Source: Paramecium tetraurelia (taxonomy: Eukaryota). From it: 64,000 bases of DNA. Position 1 is the stretch's first letter; the number at the start of each line of letters is the position of its first letter. The DNA is taken from contig CT868096.1 of assembly GCA_000165425.1 (NCBI GenBank), forward strand, positions 434,001-498,000, in the 5' to 3' direction. Below are positions 2,040-33,400 of the stretch, piece by piece. A program made the position numbers and the translations under genes. The notes beneath the pieces are model-generated. The model ran no database searches and was not told the origin of the DNA. It was given only the letters and a program-made list of their open reading frames with translations.

Positions 2040-4114
<2,075 letters not shown>

Positions 4115-7720: not shown

Positions 7721-9796
7721 TCATTCGCTTATCGAATATAGCTCATTTATTTAATTAGCAAAAAATGCCTTAGCTTTGTGTCTCATCAACTTCAATGTAT
7801 TGCTTGTTAATCCATGTACAATAAAACTGATTGGCTCAAGGTATAGTTATTTTACATTCTCTAATCCGTTGAGTTTCTCCAATTTTCCCTAGAGTATTAA
7901 TAAATTTTACTTATCTAGTTACTTGATCTAGGAAATACTTTACAATGTCCTTATTTTTACATAATTCTTCAAAAGTTTAATTTAAACCAAATTGATTGCC
8001 TAGATTGAGTACAAATTATTTATCTGGGACAATGAAACCAATACAATAACTTTTTGAAGAGTCACCATAGACAAATGCTTCAGTTACTCCATTCACTCTT
8101 TAATAGATTCCTTCTATTTTTTCAGGTGCAATGTATTCTCCTTAGCTCAATTTGAATATATTTTTGACTCTGTCGATAATTTATAAGGCACCATTTGGTC
8201 GTATGACTCCTACATCGCCAGAATGGATCCATCCATCTTTATCAATCATTTCTTTTGTCTTTTCTTCCTCTTTGTAATATCCAGCAAAGATAGCATTGCC
8301 TCTTAAACCTAGGCGTTATATTTATATTTACAGATTTCCCCTCTTGGAGTTATTTAATTATTTTCATTAACATCAGTGCTATGATAATTCATTTCAGGAA
8401 CATCAATTACTTTAAATTCTATATTAGGAAAAACACCACCAACATGTCCACTGATTGAATCTTCAGCCTTAGTAATGAAGGATCCTCCACAACCTTCTGT
8501 TTATCCATATCCTTCAATGAAGGGTGCACAAATAACACATTTTAAAAAATCTATTACTTCTGCAGACATTGGAGCTGAACCTGAAAGCATATATCTAACT
8601 CTTCCCCCTAATGCTTCTTTGGTCTTATTGAATACCATGTTATCCCAAAATCTATGTTCTACATGACCTCCATTTTTAAGATAATATTATTTGCTTGATA
8701 AGGCTTATTCACATAGTTTTTTTTTGGCCCCTTGCAGACTTTCTAATTTTTGCTTAATAGTAGTATATATTCTGAAGTATAATCTAGGAACACTCATAAA
8801 AAGAGTTGGTTTGACCATTTAAAGATCCTAATTTAATTTTTGAACATCTCCTCCATACATACAAATTGTGCTTCCGTATCCCAATAAAGTGATGACAACA
8901 AATCTCTCTAATACATGAGGAAGGGGTAAATAACTTAAATAAACATCCTTCTAACTTACTACAATGCCTTGAAATACCACTCCTCCACTTACTGATACAA
9001 AGTTTTTATGCCTTAGCATAACACCTTTGGGCAATCCTGTTGTGCCTGATGTGTAACTGAAAGTAAAAATATTATTTTCAGTCACTTCAAAATATGCATG
9101 TACTTTAGCCTTTCCTGCTTAGATTACTTATTCATAAGGCATGACTTTGAGTCCTTTTTAATTAAACTTTTATTATGTATATAAAGTACTTTCTCAATAA
9201 TTTCTTAGCTTAACTCGTCAAAACATATTATATTTTTTAATGCATGATAATTTGATACTTTCAATATTGTCTAGGCGTTCGACTCAGAAATAAAGAGAGT
9301 ATTAAGCTAAGTTTATTCGAAAATATAAGGTAAACTTTCGAAACCCAAAGTTTCATACAAAGGAATCATTGTATTTCCATATAGAGTATTGGCTATATCT
9401 AGAATTAACCACTCTTCTCTATTTTTAGAAAAAACACCTATCATTTTTAGTTGCTAATCTTCGAATACCTCTGGCTTAGGAATAAGATTTAAGTTGATTA
9501 TACCTGATCCCAAATATCTATAATTAATGTAATTATTACTCAGCATCTTATTTTACTTCTTTGTATGTCATGTATTTGTAATGTTTACTATTCTATCCAG
9601 TAGTAATCTGCTTTCCTATACATCTATTTTCAGGATATAAACGACAAGCTCTTAAAAACATTCCTTGCACTGTCTTTTCTCCCTCAAAATTATCTAATAG
9701 TTTAGCAACATGGGTAGGATTTCTATAAACATTGCTTTCTCCTTCTTTTTTCTCTCCTACAGGTACTGCGTAAATCAATGACTATGCCTACCCCAT
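7721..9796 (-). CDS. ACSL: Long-chain fatty acyl-CoA synthetase (AMP-binding)
   Basis: [69 protein letters not shown]. Starts MGQAQS. Confidence 0.95.
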
Positions 9797-9923
9797 TTAA
9801 ATTTAATTATATATATCAATTTAAAAGATCTATCTTAATATATTACTAATTGTATAATTTTCTTAGAGAAACCGATGAGTTATATTATATTTTCGATCTA
9901 TACTAATTGTGATATTATATTCA

Positions 9924-13995
<4,072 letters not shown>

Positions 13996-23270: not shown

Positions 23271-23364
23271 TATTCGTAAAAAAATAAGTCTTTTAAATTG
23301 AGATGTTTATTTATATAGATAATATTTGAAATTCAATGAATAATTTTAAAACGTAAATATCAAC

Positions 23365-26300
23365 TCATAGCATCTAATATGTTATTTCATTAGGTTTCAA
23401 ATATTCACATACGTCCGCAACAATTAAATTTTAGAATGTAATATCCTAATCGTCATCAGGTGCAATTACCATTAAGTCAGGATAATCTTCTTTAAATTAT
23501 GTAATCATTCCTTCAATTTTTTGATTTAATTTCATAACTTTAACTTAAATCTTTTTATTTCTGATATAATAGAAAATTTGTCCTTATGTTTTCTTACAAG
23601 GGCAGCCATCTGGAAAAGAATCTCCGAAATTATGATATTATTTTCCATGTGGAGGTGCCTCTGCAATTAAGTATAACAAATTTTAATAATTACCATTCCA
23701 ATTCAACTCTAAAGAAGCATCCAGACCATCTAAAACAGCCTCAGGTTCATCATCACCTCCTTCTGCCGATAATGAATTCAAAAAACTAATGGCAAGGGAA
23801 TATGAAGTAAATTAACAAATATTCACAACATTTTACAACTCATCATATGGATTCTAATGATCCTTATATGATACAATTGCAAATTTCATCTCAATATTAT
23901 GATTTTCTTTTGTTTTTTGCATTATACTTTTGATGACTTCTTTACAGTTATCAATATATTATGACATTGATCCTGTTGTATCAATAACAAAAGCTATGTT
24001 AATTCCTTATATGAATTATACTTTGTGAGTTGATGAACATGGAAATTTATGGGAGGATATCTTGTTATCTTAACTATGCCAAGCTTATTGACAACAAAAT
24101 TGATATTCACCATTTATTTTTTTACATATTGGGCAGTAATAATTACATAGACCTATATTTTATGTTTCCTTTGGGATTGGATGGGCCCATCCTTTATAAT
24201 CCCAATAGTCTATACATAATACTTCATCAAAATTCAGATGTTAAAATCCTTCATATTTCTCCTTTGAGTGTCTAGCTCTAATACCTATTTATTTTTCTAG
24301 GCATTAACTTTCCCCTTTGCATTCAATCAAATGATAATGACTTTTTCCTCTTCTCCTACAACTCTGATCACAAGTTTCTGGAGTAGATTGCTCTCCAATT
24401 TAATACTGTCTAGCAACATTATTATTCTAATCCTATATTATTAATTTAAATTCCTCCCCCTATTTTATTGTAAATATCTAAAATTCTTTATTTATATGGA
24501 TTTGGGAAGAATGATGCCCAGAATGGCCATATTTCAAATCACAAATTTTATTACATTCAGGACATTTTTAATCACATAAATGAAATTATTTTTCTGTCTC
24601 TATCATGCAACTATGTATTTAATTATGATTAAGTTACTATGGTTTAATGTTTCTACAACATTTCTTTTTTTCGTTACTTTAAGGAATATATTTAATGTAA
24701 GAGAATCTTGATTACCACATAATTTCAACTTAAGTATATGTTATTTAGCATATTCCTTTCTCTTAACAAAATTCCTAACACTCATGCTAATCTCCGCAGA
24801 AGTGATTTTAATTTTAGGAATTACGATATTATGAATGTTCATGATTATTTTTACATCTCCTTTCACATAATACGCAATTCTAAATGCAATAACTTTCTTC
24901 GCATATATGGTTTTAATGTTTTGTTGTCCTATCTGTTTTGCATTTCTTACTACAATACTAACACGTTTCTCCACATAGATGAACATTAGTGCAGTTATGT
25001 TATTCAGTATGGTTTAATTCTAGATTGCATTTGACTTAACATTAAGTTATGCTGCATTTGATATTGCATTTATGATTTTTCAAGGAACACAAATGATACT
25101 ATGACTCATTATGACCAGCCTTATTTTCGCATTTCTTATTTGGACATACTTTGCAAATTTAATCGCATTTGTGGTCACTCAAACAAGAATGCACATGCGA
25201 ATTTAATTCTACTAATTCTAACAAATTATATTTTAAAGAGTCTAATTTTTCAGCACTTGTTTCTACTTTCTAGTAACATTCTAAAATCCTTTTTTTGTTT
25301 TGTTATTAAATTAAGAGGACTTATTTTTTTTCTTCCATTTTTTGATATTCCTGTTATAAATCCTTAAGCTTAAGATTTGTATAATTATCTCTCCCTTCCC
25401 AGCCTTTAAGTAAAGTTTCAAATTTTTACATTTCTTAATCTAAAACCTGTTTTTCTTTCAAATGCTACTCTAAATCTCTCAATTCTTTCAAATATTTGTC
25501 AATTTTTGTAATTTACTCTTATTTTTCTTATTCCTTATTAATTAAATTGTTTTCATATTCTTTCAAGCTATTTAATTCTTATTATTCCTTAAGCGATTGA
25601 TCTTTCAATGCAATCAAATTCTCTGATTAATCAATAGATGATTTTTTCAATTAATTTATCTAAGTCTCAAGGTTAATATGTTAGTTTACTTTAATTAACT
25701 TTTTTTCCTGTAAATAATTAAGCTTGGTTTATCTATCAACAATTATTTAAGATTCTGAGATTTCTTAATTTACAATTTCAATTTCCTGCGACAATCTTTT
25801 TATCTCATTCTCATAATAAGTAATTTCTGATTGGATTGACAATAAGAAATTATCTTTGATATTAAAACTTTCTACCTATTCTTCCTAACCAACTTATTTC
25901 TCCATACATTGCTCAAAAAGATTGATTTTGGAAAAATACAAGGCATCAATTTATTCCTTTAATTATAATTCTTCTTTATTACAATATTCAAGCTAATTCT
26001 CAATATTTTAGAATTGAGGCTATGACAATTCTTATCTAAGATCCTCGATCATAATTCTGTTTCTATATCTAGCCAATGATAATTCTTCTATTTCTTCATT
26101 CAACTCAGTAATTTTTGTTTTATTTTTATTTAAATAACTTTTCTTTTCCTTTATTTTTCTGAGGTTATCATATAGCTCTTTATTTTTATCCAACTTCTAT
26201 TAATATACTTACAAAAATAATTGTTAGGGCATGTTGGTATATTATTCCAATAATCTTTAATTTTCATTCTTACTTTATTAGAAAAATTTGATTCCCTCTC

Positions 26301-29300
26301 TAAGATCATGTAATTTTTCTTTTAGTTCTTTTATTTTATTATCATTTTGATTTTTTTCATTCTCTTTATAATAGCCGCCCAATTATAGAATTTCATTTTC
26401 GATTTTTATTATTTCTTCGCTTATTTTTGATTTCTCAGAATTTAAGCTTCCAATTTATTAGTTATTTTTATCAATTTAAATTTGTATTTGTAATTCAATT
26501 TAATTACATTAATATTTAAGATCTGAGTATTTCTACTGAACCTCTTCTTTCTCTTATATAATTTTAATAAGTTTATCACCTTATGTTTTCAACTCATTTT
26601 TAGTCTTCCTTTATTCATCATTTATAAATTTAATATCAAATGCAATTTGCATATTTTCATTTTCTGATTCTAAGTTCATGCCATTTTATTAAACTCTTTA
26701 AACGTTGAAAAAACTAAACTCTTAAACTATATTCATTAGCTATTCTTTCTATTCCTACATAGTAGCTAACTTAATTAAGTTTGAGAGAAGAAATAAATTA
26801 ATTCCAATTTCTTCAATTTTTTGCGAAATGGAAATTAAGCTATTTCTTTCCATCATCTCCTCTTTTTAATTTTGTATTGAAGAATTGTTTCTTTGCTATT
26901 CTAACATATCGATTTCATTTTCAAGTTTTTTTTTCAATGATTCAAAATGCTCTATGTGATTGTTGAAATATTTGCAAGGTAAAAAGCATTCATTGCATTT
27001 ATTTTAACAAAATTAATATCGATCAAATTAAATTTTAAAAAAGTCTTCAAGTTTGGAATTTTCCACTTCAATTTTAGCTTAAAGTTCCATACCATTGATA
27101 TTTTCTATTTCAGATTAAGTCTTTTAAATAATTTGTTTCTTTCTTTGCTCCATCAATTTCTTTAGCTAATTATTAGCTTCTAATAAGTTTGATTTATGAT
27201 CATTTATATTATCCTTTAACTAGAGATCATTATATAATGATTTCAAAAGTACATGGTTGTATTTTATGTAATCAAAATCATCCATCTCAAATTAATATTT
27301 TCTTTAATTCAACCTTAATTCTTCACCTTATTATTATTAATCTAAAGTAAATTTATACCACTGACTTTTGCTTTCTGAGTAAATTTATTCCAATCGGATT
27401 TCAAAATCTATTAGAGTTGCATCTTTGGTATCTGACAATTCTAGCTAACAAAGAACAACCTTTACCATAGATATTAATTCCTTACCATTTTTCCATCGAA
27501 TACATTCTATAGACTTCTACAAAAGGTAGGCTCTTATTTTCTTAAGTTAATGATCAAATAATTCTTTTTCATTATTAACTAATTATTCAACTGACATATA
27601 ATTACTAAACAATTCTTTCAAAAATGGAAAATCTCGTATTTGTTCGTTATCTAATGCGTTAAAAGAATTGACATCCCTAATGATCTTATATAGAAAACCC
27701 TTAAATAACCTTTCATCTTTTAGCTACTGTGATTCTTCAAATACATTATTAAAAAGTTCTTTTTAATGTCTATCAAAAGAAGTATCTGAGTTTAAAATTG
27801 TAGCATCACTAATCGCAATAATAAATGATAGCATTTTGACTTCTTCTTTTTCAGTTCTAGATCCATCAAATAAACCTTCACAGTCAAGTATTAAAAACTT
27901 TTAATTATCCACAATTGCTAAACTTCCCCAAACTCCATCAGTGCATCTGGCTGATGAAACAGAAAATCTTGTTCCAAATACTCTATTTAATAGGTAACTT
28001 TTGCCTGATGACTGCCTACCAATTATTCCGACAACAAAAATTTTTTTTTCTTCAACTAACAAATAATCCTCTAAAAACCCAAGATGTAATTATTTGACTC
28101 TACAATCTATACTTATACTCTTTTAATTTAGTGAAAATTATCTAAACCCATCATTTAAAGGAATTAGAGTTCCATATTCAATGGTACAAAACTATAAAGG
28201 AACTCTTGAAAATATAATATCAATTATTTAATTCCTATCACACTCAGAGTATTGACTGTCATTCATACTCAAATTAGTAAACTTCAAATCCAATTTCTTA
28301 AAATAATCCATCATTTTAAGCTATTCATTTTCTTTAACATATAAAGTAATATAGCTTAATTTATTTTGATACAAAAACTCAGCATTTGGTCCAAATTTAC
28401 TTTCTGAGCCTTTAACAATGTCCAATGCAGGATTGCCCAAAAGTTTACTTTTTTATTCTTGTCTTTGCTGAGATAAATTTGATTAAATTTTTAAGACATA
28501 TTTTTTTCCTTCATTTTAAAATTCATACATCTAATCAAAAATTATAACATCAGAAGAATCTGAAACAATTTTTACATGACCATTGATAGGTATTGTTTAC
28601 AGTTTTTTACCAGTAAGGTCATATCTATCGCAACAATGAAAATTAGCAAGGTAAAAGTATTTGCCACTTGGACAGGCTAATAATTATTTGTAATTTTATG
28701 TTGGATTAGTGCTGGGTGTGAATTCTGTTTAAGTAACCTCATTTCCTATTTCCTGTAAGCATTTAATAAGACGAAATTATTATTCTTTTTCAGATTATGT
28801 ATAGATTTTGTTATTTTTGGATAATACTATTAACTTTTTACAAGTGTAAATATATGCAACTTAATCTACTAAAAATGGATTACCTTAATTATCCAATTAA
28901 TAACAATAAAATTAATCATTTTATACTATGCCTCTTGAGGAAATTGTGATCTACTATACATATTTTTCTTTATGATTGAATATGAATAAGTGGTCAAGTG
29001 TAATAGTCGAAATAGTATACAGCTTGTTATATTTCCATTAGAGCTAATTATCTTATCACTATTGCTTTCTGGGCTTAAAATAATAAAAATAAGATATAAG
29101 CCATTTTTTAAGTATAAACTATAAAAATGGAAGATTTATTTTTAGTTTAAAATATCTCTTTAATATGATAATCTTATTTCCTATCTTATAAAAAACTACC
29201 ATCTAAATAATAATCATAAATTTCATCCAATTCAGGTTTAATATTGTCTATATTCTAAGACTTATTACGATAGCATCTGAAATTAATTTTCTTTACTGAA

Positions 29301-30415
29301 TACAATACTTATTGACATAATTCTTAATATAATTCGTCTATCTTTTTAATAAATTCCCCCTATATTTCCTTAAATTTTAAATTAATTATCTTTTTATGTT
29401 CATTAAAATATTTCTCATATTTTTTGTTATCTTAAGAGTTCTAGAATTTAAATGTTAATTGTTAATTTTCAATAAATTCAACCGACTAGAATATTGATGA
29501 CACAATCTCCTCTGCTATTGGCAATTTTGTGTCATCATAGTGGAATTTGCTATACCAGGGCTATAATTAATTACAGATTTTTTGGATTAGTTTTTTCCTT
29601 TGTTATTGTACTTCCTCATTTAATTATATTGATAGTTCGTTTATTAGAGTTCTAATTTTATCAGTTTAATGCTCCTTTTTCAAAATATTAATCAAAGGGA
29701 CTATACTATGATTATTTTTGCTGATGATTTGAATCAACAAAGTTTAAGTAAATGATTTAAAAGTGTTTTATAAGTCTTCAATTTTAATCTATTCTAACCT
29801 TTTTATTATGTAAATTTAAGGGATTATTGAATAAGATTTAATAATTTACCAATTTTTAATATCATTTTCAAGCCTAGAATACTAACATTAATATCTTTAA
29901 ATTTCTTATTTGTTCAATTCTTTAAAATCAAAATCTTATCGCACTAATTATTCCGAACTAAAAGGTATTGCATTTCCATTATACCAATTAGAGAATACTA
30001 ATTCATCTAAACATATAATTATATTGTCTGTAAAATCCTGTAAGATTCTAAATAATACAATTTCTATTGATTGTTCTTAAATAGGTATTTTTGTGAAAAA
30101 TGAATTTGATAGTATCAAGCAAAATAACAATAAATCTGAAAATTTAATTACAATGAGATTTCCTTTTTCTGATTAATACAATAATTCTGCTAAATCGATT
30201 ACTTTTTTAAAATCATTCTAAATTTTTCTTTCAATATTGCTTTAACATCCAAATATACCTTATATTCTTTGTTTTGATTAAGTATTTAATTCAATACACA
30301 TTTAATTAACATTATTAATATGAATATGTATTTTGTCAAGTTAAGAATTTAAAGCATGGTCAGTGACTATTGAATACAATAAAGTAATTTCAAATTCTCT
30401 ATTTTTTGGATTCAT
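23365..30415 (-). CDS. Giant protein: N-terminal region, VLIG/GBP/RHD3-like GTPase, coiled coil, Cys/His repeats, C-terminal vWA domain; one frame break at about 28996-29058
   Basis: G1 GRQSSGKS (about 27997-28020), G2 RCT, G3 DCEG, G4 IRD; repeated C..C..H..C units at 24200-25260; vWA IAFVIDTTGSM...GGDDEPEAVLDGL...IAEAPPHG. The G1 codon is in phase with the stop at 23365. Confidence 0.85.
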
Positions 30416-33400
30416 TATCCCTAAATTTTTAATTCAAATATTAAATTTTGTAGATAAATCATCAATTATATTATGATTTATAAAAATGATAGAAAATGAG
30501 AAACTAATAAAATATTAAGTTTTTTTTAAATTAAATAATTTAATAATACTGATTAACGACATAATTATAGAATACTTTGAATATTCATAATTATTACCCT
30601 TTATATTGAATTAATTAATCTGAATTTACAGATGAGAATGTAAAATGATACTTTTTACCCCAAATTCAAAAACTAGTTCATATATTTTCTATTGTATAGA
30701 TGAACAATCAAAAAAGTGTTATTCTTGTAAATGCCCGATTTATTAAGATTAATAATAACAATTAACTTGAAATTCAAGTTTTATTCATTTAAAGAAATCC
30801 AGATGTAGACTTAGAGTATGCCAAATGCAATTATGAAATAGTGCAATATTATTTAAATAGAAAAAAAGGTACTAATTAATTTTAATGGAATTAAATGTTA
30901 AAATTTGCTCATTTTATTCAAGTGTAAAGATAATCATGGCATAAATTGTAAAAATTGAATAAGATATTCCACCTGCTCTATCGGTGACATTATAAGAATG
31001 GAACAGCCTGATATCAAAGTTAAAATTTCTATATTTAAAATATCAGGTTGATTAATTGCATTTAGTTCCCTTCAAATTTCACACCTTAAATTTCTATTAT
31101 AATAATTGAGGTGCTCATCAATGTGTTGTGTTCTAAGTTGTCAAAAAATTAAAGATAAATTCAATCAACTTCATCTTCACTTCAACAAACAGAACCAGAT
31201 GATCCAATGTAAATAGTTTTATAGCAAATTAGAATTAAAATGCAACAACTATAGATAGATTAAAAGTGCTAATTGTAATGTATTTCTCTAATAAATGGCT
31301 TTTACTTTTAAAATATAGGAAATGATATTCAAATTTAAGTTAGTTTATATATATTATTATGACGAAAGAGTATGACTTTGGTAAATAATGAATAATAAAC
31401 TGATACCTTTCTAATTAATTACATAAAATCTCAATTTATAGATAACTTATTGAACTTTAATTTTTTCATTTCCTTTGCTTTTAATTAATCTAAATGTGTT
31501 TCTGTTTCAGAAGTATTCACAGATTTCTTTAATCTATCATTTCATTCATGTTAAATTTCAATACCGATTTTTGTCAGATATTAGAATTCTTATATTTATT
31601 CATTAGTTGTAGTCATTTTATTTCCAAATTTACTAATGTCTTTTAAGAATATATGTATTTCTCTCTATAAACTAAACTCAATTATTAATTACTTTTAATA
31701 AACCTAAAATTTCAACTATCACAAAGTACTTAAATATTAATGAGTTCTGGGTTGCCTATATAGAATTGAATTATTCTTTGTTATTTTTTTTGCTATGAGG
31801 TTTCTTGTTTTTCCAGTTATATATGGAATTCTAAATTGTCATTCAAAATTTTTGTTGTTTAATTCTAAAAAGATGAATCAATGTAATTAATCTTTTTTTT
31901 TTAAGATGTATGACTGATAGGATTATTTACAATTCTCGAATGTTAAAAATAGTTTTTGATATAGTATTCAGAGAATTAGATATATTTTAAATTATGTTAC
32001 AATTATTTATTGATTATTCATTCCTAATTTTTGGTAATGGGTTAAAGGAGATCAATTTCTGATTATTTCTTCATTACATTAAATATTTGTGAATATTTTT
32101 GATAAGAAGAATCCTTCTTCTAAGAAATTAAGACATTTTTAATTCTTATATTTATTTTCATTCAATTTGATAATATTTAAGTAATCATTTACTAAAAATA
32201 ATTTCAGATAAAATCAATACAAGATTGGTTTATATTTTAGGTTTTTAATTATAATGTTCAAATTGAATTTCCTATTTCAATTTTAATGAAATTTGCATTA
32301 GCTTGTTTGATAGTTTCTTGCTTTCTTATAAAAAATATATTTGTTAGAAATTAGACTTAAATTATTTGTTGAATATTGTGATTGTAAATTGATAGGACTG
32401 TATATCAACTGCTTTATATTATGAAGTTTCCTCTTCACAGGAAGAATTTTTGAATCCAAATTCGAATTTGTAACTATATAATTATAATTGTGTAGTGAAA
32501 TTAAATATGTTCTTTTTTACAATATTCCTATGAAATCCTAGGATAAATGAATTATATCAAGTCAATACATTGCCATATTATTTTTACTCATTATATTTAA
32601 TAAATATTAAATTATGATGCTAATTTAAAATTGCTTATGATTTTGGCTTTTAGAAGGCAAATAATTAATCTTGATGGGCAAATTCAATTAATAAATCCAT
32701 ATATTCAACTGATGTGTTAGATTAAATTTATATATTAGCTTTTACGCATATTTTATTAATTGTAAAACATTTAATAGTTTTATTTTCTACTTCCAATAGT
32801 TAAGGATAGATCTAAAGGCTAAATCAGTTTTCCATTATTTGAAATAAGAATGGCAAAATATTTATAAGTAGAAACGATAGGAAATATAACAAGTTTTGAA
32901 GTCCTATTATTTTATGATGATGAATAAGAAATAATCTACTTTAAGTTTATAAACCTAAAGTTCATTTTTAGGTGAAATTTTAAAAAGTAATTAGAGACAG
33001 ACATTTGTATTGTTGTTCTTTTTCAGTCATTATATCATTTGAAAATTGGAAACTTTGATAATTAAATTTGAAAGAATTTCATAATTTACTTAAAAATTCT
33101 TCCAAATATATATATTTATTAAAATTAGCAGGAGAGAGGGGATAAATCATGTTTAATTGTAATAGGTCTAAATTTATCATTTGTTGGAATTTAAGGATGA
33201 ACATTGCTTGAATTCAAAATTCTTCCCCTACAGCATAGTTAGTTTGTTATAATTGTAGAGTCTGTTCAAATATCTAAAAATCAGGAAGTGTTTTTTTTAA
33301 CAATCTCTTATAAAAATGTCATCTTTAGAAATGGCCCTAATGATGACATTTTTATTAAAGTTCCATTAAATCAATCAAGGATTAAGGTTAAAGTGAAGTT

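Follow-up and report, generated by a model that had tools for sequence, protein, structure and literature searches.

A giant single-exon gene on the minus strand

The minus strand of a 64,000-nucleotide stretch of Paramecium tetraurelia DNA (assembly GCA_000165425.1, contig CT868096.1, positions 434,001 to 498,000; hereafter the window, whose own numbering is used throughout) carries a gene for a giant protein in which a GTPase (G) domain, a helical stalk, an array of Cys/His repeats, and a C-terminal VWA domain follow one another. Read under the ciliate code (NCBI table 6, with TGA as the only stop), the locus presents two frames: a main frame that is open from stop to stop over 23365..29055 (1896 codons), and an upstream frame at 28994..30433, with an ATG at 30415 and 473 codons from there to a TGA at 28994-28996. 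The main frame is far beyond chance expectation, since the next-longest frame in the window has 1267 codons and most have fewer than 500. When one surplus letter at position 29001 is dropped, the two frames join into a coding region of 7050 nucleotides (nt), i.e., a single exon of 2349 codons plus stop (23365..30415, minus strand; ATG at 30415, TGA at 23365-23367). This agrees with the roughly 2350 codons that a first-pass annotation, made from the letters alone, had assigned to the same interval.

Both sequencing data and homologs identified the letter at 29001 as an extra base. We compared the locus with contigs from four public runs, of which X20 is on record as RNA-Seq, X17 and X19 are RNA by our own guess, and X12 provides a DNA contig over the whole stretch; X17 and X19 have zero depth in the flanks, where X12 reaches ~80-fold. 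The letter is missing in X20 (depth 7.7 of 7.7), X17 (3.99 of 3.99), and X12 (80.2 of 80.2), and X19 has no contig at this position. X12 is near-identical to the window and may share source material, hence it is not fully independent, while X20 and X17 come from other studies. Independently of these runs, five paralogs and orthologs aligned to the window with tblastn begin at 30415, are colinear throughout, and read through the junction. Their alignments run in the upstream frame as far as 29003 and resume in the main frame at 28998, and exactly four residues separate the two conserved blocks there, with the same spacing in the homologs. This frame switch with preserved spacing is the signature of one extra base. 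An intron of 76 nt at 29044-29119 was ruled out by the homolog alignments and by the reads, which show a one-base frame break.

The base at 29001 is either an error of the assembly or a difference between strains, and it accounts for both the apparent frame break and the TGA at 28994-28996; between 28994 and 23365 the frame is free of further TGAs. The remaining differences between the window and all covering runs are four C-for-T differences at 27286, 27423, 27459, and 27460, two of them silent, one changing D to N, and one changing V to I. The break in the window as given might also be taken as the mark of a recent pseudogene, disabled by the frameshift and the in-frame TGA. We find this barely credible: the base is absent from three of the four other runs, two of them RNA (the fourth being the one without a contig there), the flanking frames stay open for 470 and 1877 codons where only TGA stops, and the locus is transcribed and polyadenylated. 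For the strains behind X12, X17, and X20, which lack the base, the pseudogene reading is refuted.

Transcription is directly visible in the RNA contigs, which together span 23320-30061 without a splice joint anywhere in the run contigs over the locus, while cover in X20, X17, and X19 is zero across 30128-30900. One X17 contig ends at 23320 in nine untemplated T, where the genome letters read tttatatag, and this tail places a poly(A) site at ~23320, 45 nt past the stop, and delimits a 3′ untranslated region at 23320..23364 (minus strand, 45 nt). The gene is real and intron-free, and the first-pass description of the region as apparently intron-poor holds for this gene. As an aside, the frames of neighbouring genes are in pieces, as expected for intron-rich Paramecium genes, and this 7-kb gene shows no intron in the RNA contigs.

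The deposited protein for this locus (P0004, 2287 residues, labelled “VLIG-type G domain-containing protein” in UniProt) is 100% identical to our translation over the queried region, but its gene model is wrong because the extra base breaks the frame: it contains two false introns and begins at an internal Met, 38 codons late. The first “intron” (29023..29059, minus strand; 37 nt, GTG...AAG) is an artefact by which the model spans the frame break; the residues it skips are kept in homologs, and an X17 contig (28930-29115) crosses it unspliced, save for the one-letter gap. The second (28531..28566, minus strand; 36 nt) cuts out VSDSSDVIIFDQ, residues that are kept in paralogs, and it is crossed ungapped by an X20 contig (28113-28608) and an X17 contig (28527-28948). 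A practical by-product of this analysis is thus a corrected gene model, with one exon and a start at 30415.

A GTPase domain of the GBP/Sey1/VLIG group

From N- to C-terminus, the corrected protein (residue numbers for which are approximate) consists of some 730-790 unassigned residues, a G domain at ~730-1020, a Cys knuckle, the stalk, the Cys/His array, and the VWA domain. All motifs listed in the first-pass annotation were recovered (VVGIIGRQSSGKSYLLN, SARCTDG, ILDCEGL, IIRD, DTTGS, GGDDEPE, and EAPPH). Its long coiled coil, C/H repeats, and C-terminal VWA domain likewise correspond to features that we could delimit, namely a helical stalk, a 397-residue array, and a 56.5-bit match to Pfam VWA_4.

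The GTPase domain (27346..28215, minus strand) carries a complete set of GTPase motifs, with those for nucleotide binding intact, all on the same strand: G1 GRQSSGKS (27997-28020), G2 SARCTDG (27934-27954), G3 DCEG (27874-27885), and an RD-type G4, IIRD (27673-27684). Across 44 family sequences, the G, Q, G, K, and S of G1, the R, C, T, and G of G2, and the D, E, and G of G3 are invariant, and at least 90% of the sequences retain the Asp of the RD motif. The best Pfam G family is URGCP_GTPase (PF25683), at 48.5-49.2 bits and below its gathering score, with MMR_HSR1 at 27.1-27.5 bits. URGCP_GTPase likewise ranks first among G families in 16 of 20 further members; the other four match only generic families, and one of the 20 (P0059, 64.8 bits) passes the cut-off. 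Among solved structures, the single G-domain sequence ranked GBP5 first (E 2e-7), followed by GTPase Der and Sey1 (E 3e-4), and a family profile matched GBP5 (6e-14) and Sey1 (5ca8, 9e-14). A fish GVIN1 protein (P0108) aligned by BLASTP at 35% identity over 102 residues spanning G1-G3 (E 9e-16), with a common pattern of G.QSSGKS..LN..FG..F.VS..RCT.G ... D.EG. These matches bear out the placement of the domain, proposed in the first-pass annotation, in the GBP/Sey1/VLIG group; within this group its sequence signature is nearest the VLIG type, and it falls outside each single curated family.

Comparison with individual members of this group shows where the likeness ends. VLIG, GVIN1, and URGCP proteins are likewise giant, cytosolic, and built around a central G domain, which fish VLIGs (P0107, P0108, P0305, and P0306) surround with the families PF26772, PF26773, PF25974, PF25496, and PF26771. 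The zinc array and VWA domain of the Paramecium protein are not among the Pfam families given for fish VLIGs, for which whole-region E-values are only 1e-5 to 1e-6. GBPs, which are immune coat-forming GTPases, share the RD-type G4, but they have a helical domain and a CaaX end. The Paramecium protein has neither, ends in a VWA domain (...EITYQML), and is four times larger; the GBP family (PF02263) is not listed for P0004, and a fragment scores 18.1 bits against a cut-off of 21.1.

Sey1, RHD3, and atlastin form a related G-domain class with a QSSGKS-type P-loop in common with the Paramecium domain, and the protein could on these grounds be read as a membrane-fusion GTPase with a housekeeping job in the endoplasmic reticulum. 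The family profile scores Sey1 level with GBP5, one relative (P0071) was named “protein sey1” by its depositor, and relatives reach or approach the RHD3_GTPase cut-off (47.9, 46.4, and 42.9 bits). For P0004, RHD3_GTPase (PF05879) is not listed, and a fragment reaches only 21.8 bits against a cut-off of 42.4. Sey1 moreover has two transmembrane segments after its helical bundle, whereas the Paramecium protein has no such hairpin and continues into a stalk, zinc array, and VWA domain unlike anything in Sey1. A Kyte-Doolittle scan (19-residue window, threshold 1.6), a crude method, found no transmembrane segment in the last 1877 residues, and the single marginal hydrophobic stretch (84-107) has Lys and Asp inside. 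The protein is predicted to be soluble, and because it has no membrane anchor, it is probably not a fusogen of the Sey1/atlastin type, a reading that we consider largely refuted and very improbable. The first-pass annotation had named clustering with housekeeping Sey1/atlastin as evidence against its own proposal; with its missing hairpin and low RHD3_GTPase score, the protein does not behave like that class. The first-pass suggestion of membrane remodelling is not supported, no membrane-binding feature having been detected. A word-based search for shorter G-domain relatives returned no named Sey1 or GBP, an absence that proves nothing; its matches were confined to fish VLIGs, two grass proteins, and fragments or split models belonging to this family.

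N-terminal regions, Cys knuckle, and stalk

The part of the protein that precedes the G domain falls into two regions. N-terminal region 1 (29004..30415, minus strand; 470 residues) belongs to no Pfam family, its only match being FAS_pseudo-KR at 18 bits against a cut-off of 27.4; it is 52% identical to P. primaurelia P0006, 42% to P0007, and 30-34% to four paralogs. The pre-G region (28219..28998, minus strand; ~260 residues) contains the family-conserved motifs GNPxLD, KFG, and SRVPLQxCTIE and likewise lacks a known family, with Pfam matches to this piece starting only from residue 314 on, i.e., in the G domain. In all, residues 1-470 and 472-730 matched no Pfam family, and a whole-family profile found nothing credible for them among solved structures, the best rows for the N-terminus being apolipoprotein A-IV (E 0.024) and one designed protein.

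On the other side of the G domain, a helical part is followed by a Cys knuckle (26956..27009, minus strand) of the form CxxxCxxCxxxCx5H, whose C664, C668, C671, C675, and H681 are each kept in at least 90% of 44 sequences. The subsequent stalk (25228..26925, minus strand; ~570 residues) is predicted to be helical and coiled-coil-like: Pro and Gly together make up 0-2.4% of nine out of ten 84-residue windows, Q, E, and K each account for 12-13% of its residues, and the 3.5-residue periodicity is 1.6-9.2 times background by a crude measure.

A conserved Cys/His array with no described relative

The Cys/His array (24016..25206, minus strand; 397 residues) is built from about six units with the pattern HxC-x3-4-HxC-x3-C-x2-4-C-x3-C-x5-7-H, after which comes a small alpha/beta part; its overall composition is 10.1% Cys and 7.2% His. 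In 52 sequences from ciliates to land plants, 57 Cys/His positions are kept in at least 90%, enough for roughly 14 predicted zinc sites. AlphaFold2 modelled the array alone with a predicted local distance difference test score (pLDDT) of 90.8 and a predicted template modelling score of 0.74 (model md28cc267bb12, 52 sequences), and the array together with the VWA domain with a mean pLDDT of 86.3 (44-sequence alignment).

Neither structure nor sequence connected this model to a known fold. VIA-align brought two of 48,161 representative chains to Z 2, the better at 2.5; Foldseek returned nothing at E ≤0.001 in the PDB or the viral BFVD; phmmer against PDB sequences returned nothing for the array or for the joint Cys/His and VWA piece; and Pfam returned nothing for a 367-residue Cys/His piece at E up to 5, nor for the array of 20 other members at E up to 0.05. 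As modelled, the array is a well-ordered and strongly conserved module with no described relative in Pfam or the PDB.

The one structural lead concerns ZNFX1. The top row of the two that reach Z ≥2 is a ZNFX1 helicase-core entry (9q9z_A, residues 1259-1345; Z 2.5, root-mean-square deviation (rmsd) 4.7, 79 residues aligned), and the HxC-x3-C spacing bears a loose resemblance to the NF-X1 pattern. ZNFX1/NF-X1 proteins also combine tandem Cys/His knuckles with an NTPase in a large cytosolic protein, as is the case here. On this basis, the array might consist of divergent NF-X1-like zinc fingers that bind RNA or DNA and so sense nucleic acid, with the GTPase and VWA domains signalling downstream. 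We judge this quite improbable: a Z of 2.5 is not significant, the Pfam searches above gave no zinc-finger match, and the search against PDB sequences was empty; the likeness to ZNFX1 is a lead and not a relationship.

A VWA_4 domain with bacterial relatives beside E1-like and JAB genes

The last 215 residues form a VWA domain (23368..24015, minus strand) of the VWA_4 type (PF25106, 56.5 bits, E 3.3e-15, cut-off 27), with DTTGS at 23968-23982 followed by GGDDEPE, EAPPHG, and GCPC. The corresponding motifs DTTxSM, GGGDxPEAV, APPHG, and GCPCG are kept from ciliates to land plants. Compared with the DxSxS metal motif, the first Ser is replaced by Thr in the Paramecium domain (DTTGS, DxTxS), and the metal site is putative. 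The model is confident, with pLDDT mostly 84-97 per ten-residue block and two lower blocks (78 and 65), and its VWA (Rossmann-like) fold matches integrin-type I domains: residues 412-623 of the model align with the pactolus I-domain (2iue) at Z 19.0, rmsd 2.6, over 180 residues, and with integrin beta3, beta8, and beta6 at Z 17-18, among 104 chains at Z ≥8 in VIA-align, and Foldseek gives integrin beta at E 2e-10. The integrin beta and pactolus domains are extracellular and only 11-14% identical, so that the likeness is one of fold only. The intracellular VWA domains of Rpn10 and TFIIH p44 are also among the fold matches, at Z 15-16.

In sequence, the first-pass comparison with alpha-kinase proteins of the vwkA type holds, since the same Pfam VWA_4 occurs in the alpha-kinase fusions P0154 (E 6e-13) and P0265 (E 4e-24), both found with the VWA part; the alpha-kinase domain itself (PF02816) is not matched in P0004. 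Elsewhere, the VWA part occurs with HSP70 (P0223) and in multi-VWA proteins. Where these relatives join VWA_4 to a kinase or HSP70, the Paramecium protein joins it to a zinc array and a GTPase instead.

The nearest short VWA relatives are bacterial proteins of ~260 residues that are 33-38% identical. A genome scan with one of them identified five loci, all in Chloroflexota-type assemblies, and we examined four (L001:1508-5706, L002:1821-5740, L003:3450-8633, and L004:10-9583). In all four, the VWA_4 gene stands beside ThiF/E1-like and/or JAB genes. L001, L002, and L003 contain a larger VWA-like gene, then the VWA_4 gene, and within the next one to three genes ThiF (E1-like), and L001 carries a JAB gene as well; L004 encodes two JAB proteins, an FHA protein, and multiple VWA proteins, one of which bears a prokaryotic RING finger. 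The PADLOC E1-E2 and JAB models match the bacterial ThiF and JAB genes, and these gene rows resemble an operon for ubiquitin-like conjugation that includes VWA components. Taken with the RING-bearing variants from eukaryotes described below, these loci, a small sample, hint that the VWA_4 type works with ubiquitin-like conjugation.

A family scattered across distant eukaryotes

A search seeded with the G domain retrieved 105 proteins of 1042-3318 residues at E ≤0.001. Among ciliates, these came from six Paramecium species, Tetrahymena thermophila, T. malaccensis, T. utriculariae, Stylonychia, Stentor, and Blepharisma; beyond ciliates, from bdelloid rotifers (Adineta and Rotaria), the anaerobic amoeboid Anaeramoeba, the oomycete Phytophthora ramorum, a moss, a liverwort, and the conifer Cryptomeria. 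Fish VLIGs appeared only at the weak end of this list. P. tetraurelia has four loci: P0004, P0011, and P0013 represent one each, and P0015 shares a contig with P0111 at the fourth. In T. malaccensis and T. utriculariae, several copies among P0083-P0093 share a contig and have neighbouring locus tags (e.g., ABPG74_000543/000544/000546, ABPG74_019667/019673/019674, and ABPG72_016362/016363), which suggests tandem expansion.

An exhaustive phmmer search with the Cys/His and VWA piece yielded 6060 proteins at E ≤0.001, 78 of them at E ≤1e-30. We scanned 32 of the 150 relatives listed among these matches against Pfam, several of the short array-covering ones possibly being fragments. The only named domains in array-covering relatives were G-domain families (12 of 32), VWA families, and RING (two). 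The two RING-bearing proteins, P0203 (2889 amino acids) and P0276 (1240 amino acids), carry this domain at the C-terminus, after VWA, and group with the Phytophthora protein in a quick tree.

Divergence is unevenly distributed along the protein. Compared with the closest ortholog model, P. octaurelia P0005, the G domain retains 76% identity, the post-G part 81%, the array 83%, and the VWA domain 85%, against 53% for the stalk; relative to P. primaurelia P0006, the stalk value falls to 38%. The stalk is the fastest-diverging part, and the N-terminus also diverges fast, while the G, zinc, and VWA parts are conserved. Between G3 and the array lie ~900 residues in Paramecium and the rotifer group, compared with 300-400 in many other members; the long stalk is lineage-specific, and most members outside these two groups have a much shorter one.

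Rotifer sequences stand apart in one further respect. In a quick maximum-likelihood tree (51 sequences, 1270 columns), a rotifer-containing clade is sister to Paramecium and apart from Tetrahymena and Stylonychia, the support value of the rotifer and Paramecium node having been lost on rooting. Rotifer copies and unnamed relatives (P0016-P0030 and P0160) are 37-41% identical to the Paramecium G region, compared with 29-35% for Tetrahymena. The rotifer copies have the long stalk in common with Paramecium, and one Adineta contig is 311,616 bases long. A gene transfer from a ciliate is possible, as is ciliate DNA in rotifer assemblies.

Searches with the family and with the Tetrahymena gene names found no paper in open-access PMC or bioRxiv full text, and passages of PMC8195603 yielded nothing that bears on the family. 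Public databases already list the protein with its G and VWA labels, while the zinc array is undescribed as far as Pfam and the PDB are concerned.

Genomic surroundings

The first-pass annotation had placed the gene in an accessory region, a view that its neighbours contradict. The 64 kb encode a succinate dehydrogenase flavoprotein, a CCCH zinc-finger protein, an EF-hand protein, an AMP-binding enzyme, and a Sec1-family protein, along with several protein kinases, a proteasome subunit, and a chromo-domain protein. The flavoprotein gene (2733-4083, plus strand) is locally GC-richer, at 35.5% compared with 21-31% elsewhere, and encodes an ordinary housekeeping succinate dehydrogenase/fumarate reductase flavoprotein (FAD_binding_2 and Succ_DH_flav_C). 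A 1267-codon frame at 9353-13156 (minus strand) contains a run of ~50 glutamines and long acidic and lysine-rich stretches, and has no Pfam family.

Possible mechanism and role

GTP-dependent pairing of G domains drives self-assembly in GBPs, atlastin/Sey1, and dynamin-like proteins. By analogy with GBP, atlastin/Sey1, and GVIN1, the GTP-bound G domain of the Paramecium protein would pair with another and drive self-assembly, the stalk would set the reach of the assembly, and the presumably rigid head formed by the zinc array and VWA domain could bind a protein ligand through the DxTxS metal site, onto an acidic residue of this ligand. On this view, nucleotide would drive the protein to assemble into a scaffold or coat on a cytosolic target. 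We regard this mechanism, taken as a whole, as evenly poised between right and wrong.

The weakest step is the role of such a scaffold, which may lie in the surveillance of intracellular bodies (bacteria, symbionts, or damaged compartments), possibly with ubiquitin-type tagging. A role in conflict would fit the four P. tetraurelia loci, the Tetrahymena clusters, and the fast N-terminus and stalk beside conserved parts. The link to ubiquitin is suggested because RING is present in two of the 32 scanned relatives and E1 or JAB genes stand beside bacterial VWA_4 in four of four loci. One preprint reports that human GVIN1 coats an intracellular bacterium (10.1101/2025.03.24.645074). A specifically defensive role for the Paramecium protein, plausible only by analogy with such relatives, is in our estimate doubtful.

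Several results weigh against a surveillance scaffold built on a VLIG-like GTPase. The URGCP_GTPase match does not reach its gathering score of 55 and covers only profile positions 185-297 of 396, and none of the GVIN/URGCP flanking families is found in P0004 at Pfam E-values up to 5. Where the P-loop of GBP5 (GLYRTGKS) is aligned with GRQSSGKS, the Paramecium sequence lacks the arginine, and catalytic details may differ. No membrane or lipid anchor was found, which leaves targeting unexplained. PADLOC models match P0004 with 0 families at E up to 0.01, the library being prokaryotic only. The gene lies in ordinary gene-dense macronuclear DNA among housekeeping genes, and the 64-kb window holds no second or tandem copy of it. 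Finally, relaxed constraint could explain the rapid divergence of the stalk and N-terminus equally well.

Part of this evidence speaks for the main rival, in which the protein is a housekeeping, GTP-regulated giant scaffold with no immune role, its zinc-array and VWA head binding a cellular partner in the cytoskeleton or cortex, in vesicle or trichocyst traffic, or in ubiquitin-linked quality control. Such a function would suit an architecture that is ancient, shared across very distant eukaryotes, and strongly conserved in its G, zinc, and VWA parts. It would also suit a gene that sits among housekeeping genes and whose transcripts turn up in several unrelated RNA data sets, with no apparent special induction. 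Rpn10 and TFIIH p44 provide matching VWA domains inside the cell, and the RING variants and bacterial E1/JAB neighbours indicate ubiquitin-type chemistry, not defence as such. A core function sits less well with the patchy distribution of the family, which whole lineages apparently lack, and with its lineage-specific clusters, which are unusual for a core function, and the closest relatives that have been named and studied are immune GTPases. On balance we consider a purely housekeeping scaffold unlikely, if still worth serious attention.

The nucleotide-driven scaffold or coat can be extended to a broader proposal, which we put forward as speculative and distinctly unlikely: the family might represent an ancient, pan-eukaryotic machine for cell-autonomous surveillance, with a VLIG/GBP-class GTPase that polymerises on intracellular targets and a head, made of an undescribed array fold with about 14 zinc sites and a VWA_4 domain, that recruits ubiquitin-type conjugation or is controlled by it. 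The ubiquitin link would have been inherited from bacterial VWA_4 operons with E1-like and JAB genes and would still be visible in the eukaryotic variants that end in RING.

GBPs, IRGs, and GVIN1 are central to cell-autonomous immunity in animals, and their deep history is poorly known. The conserved family described here joins a GTPase of the GBP/VLIG class to a confidently modelled zinc module with neither a Pfam family nor a solved relative and to an intracellular VWA domain, an architecture that is a distinct variant within the GBP/VLIG kind, in a family that is widespread in eukaryotes. Since Paramecium offers both RNA interference by feeding and natural bacterial symbionts, the function of the protein is directly testable there. 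If the broader surveillance proposal is true, coats of the GBP/GVIN style and ubiquitin tagging would have been coupled long before animals, and the bdelloid rotifer copies may stem from ciliates through gene transfer.

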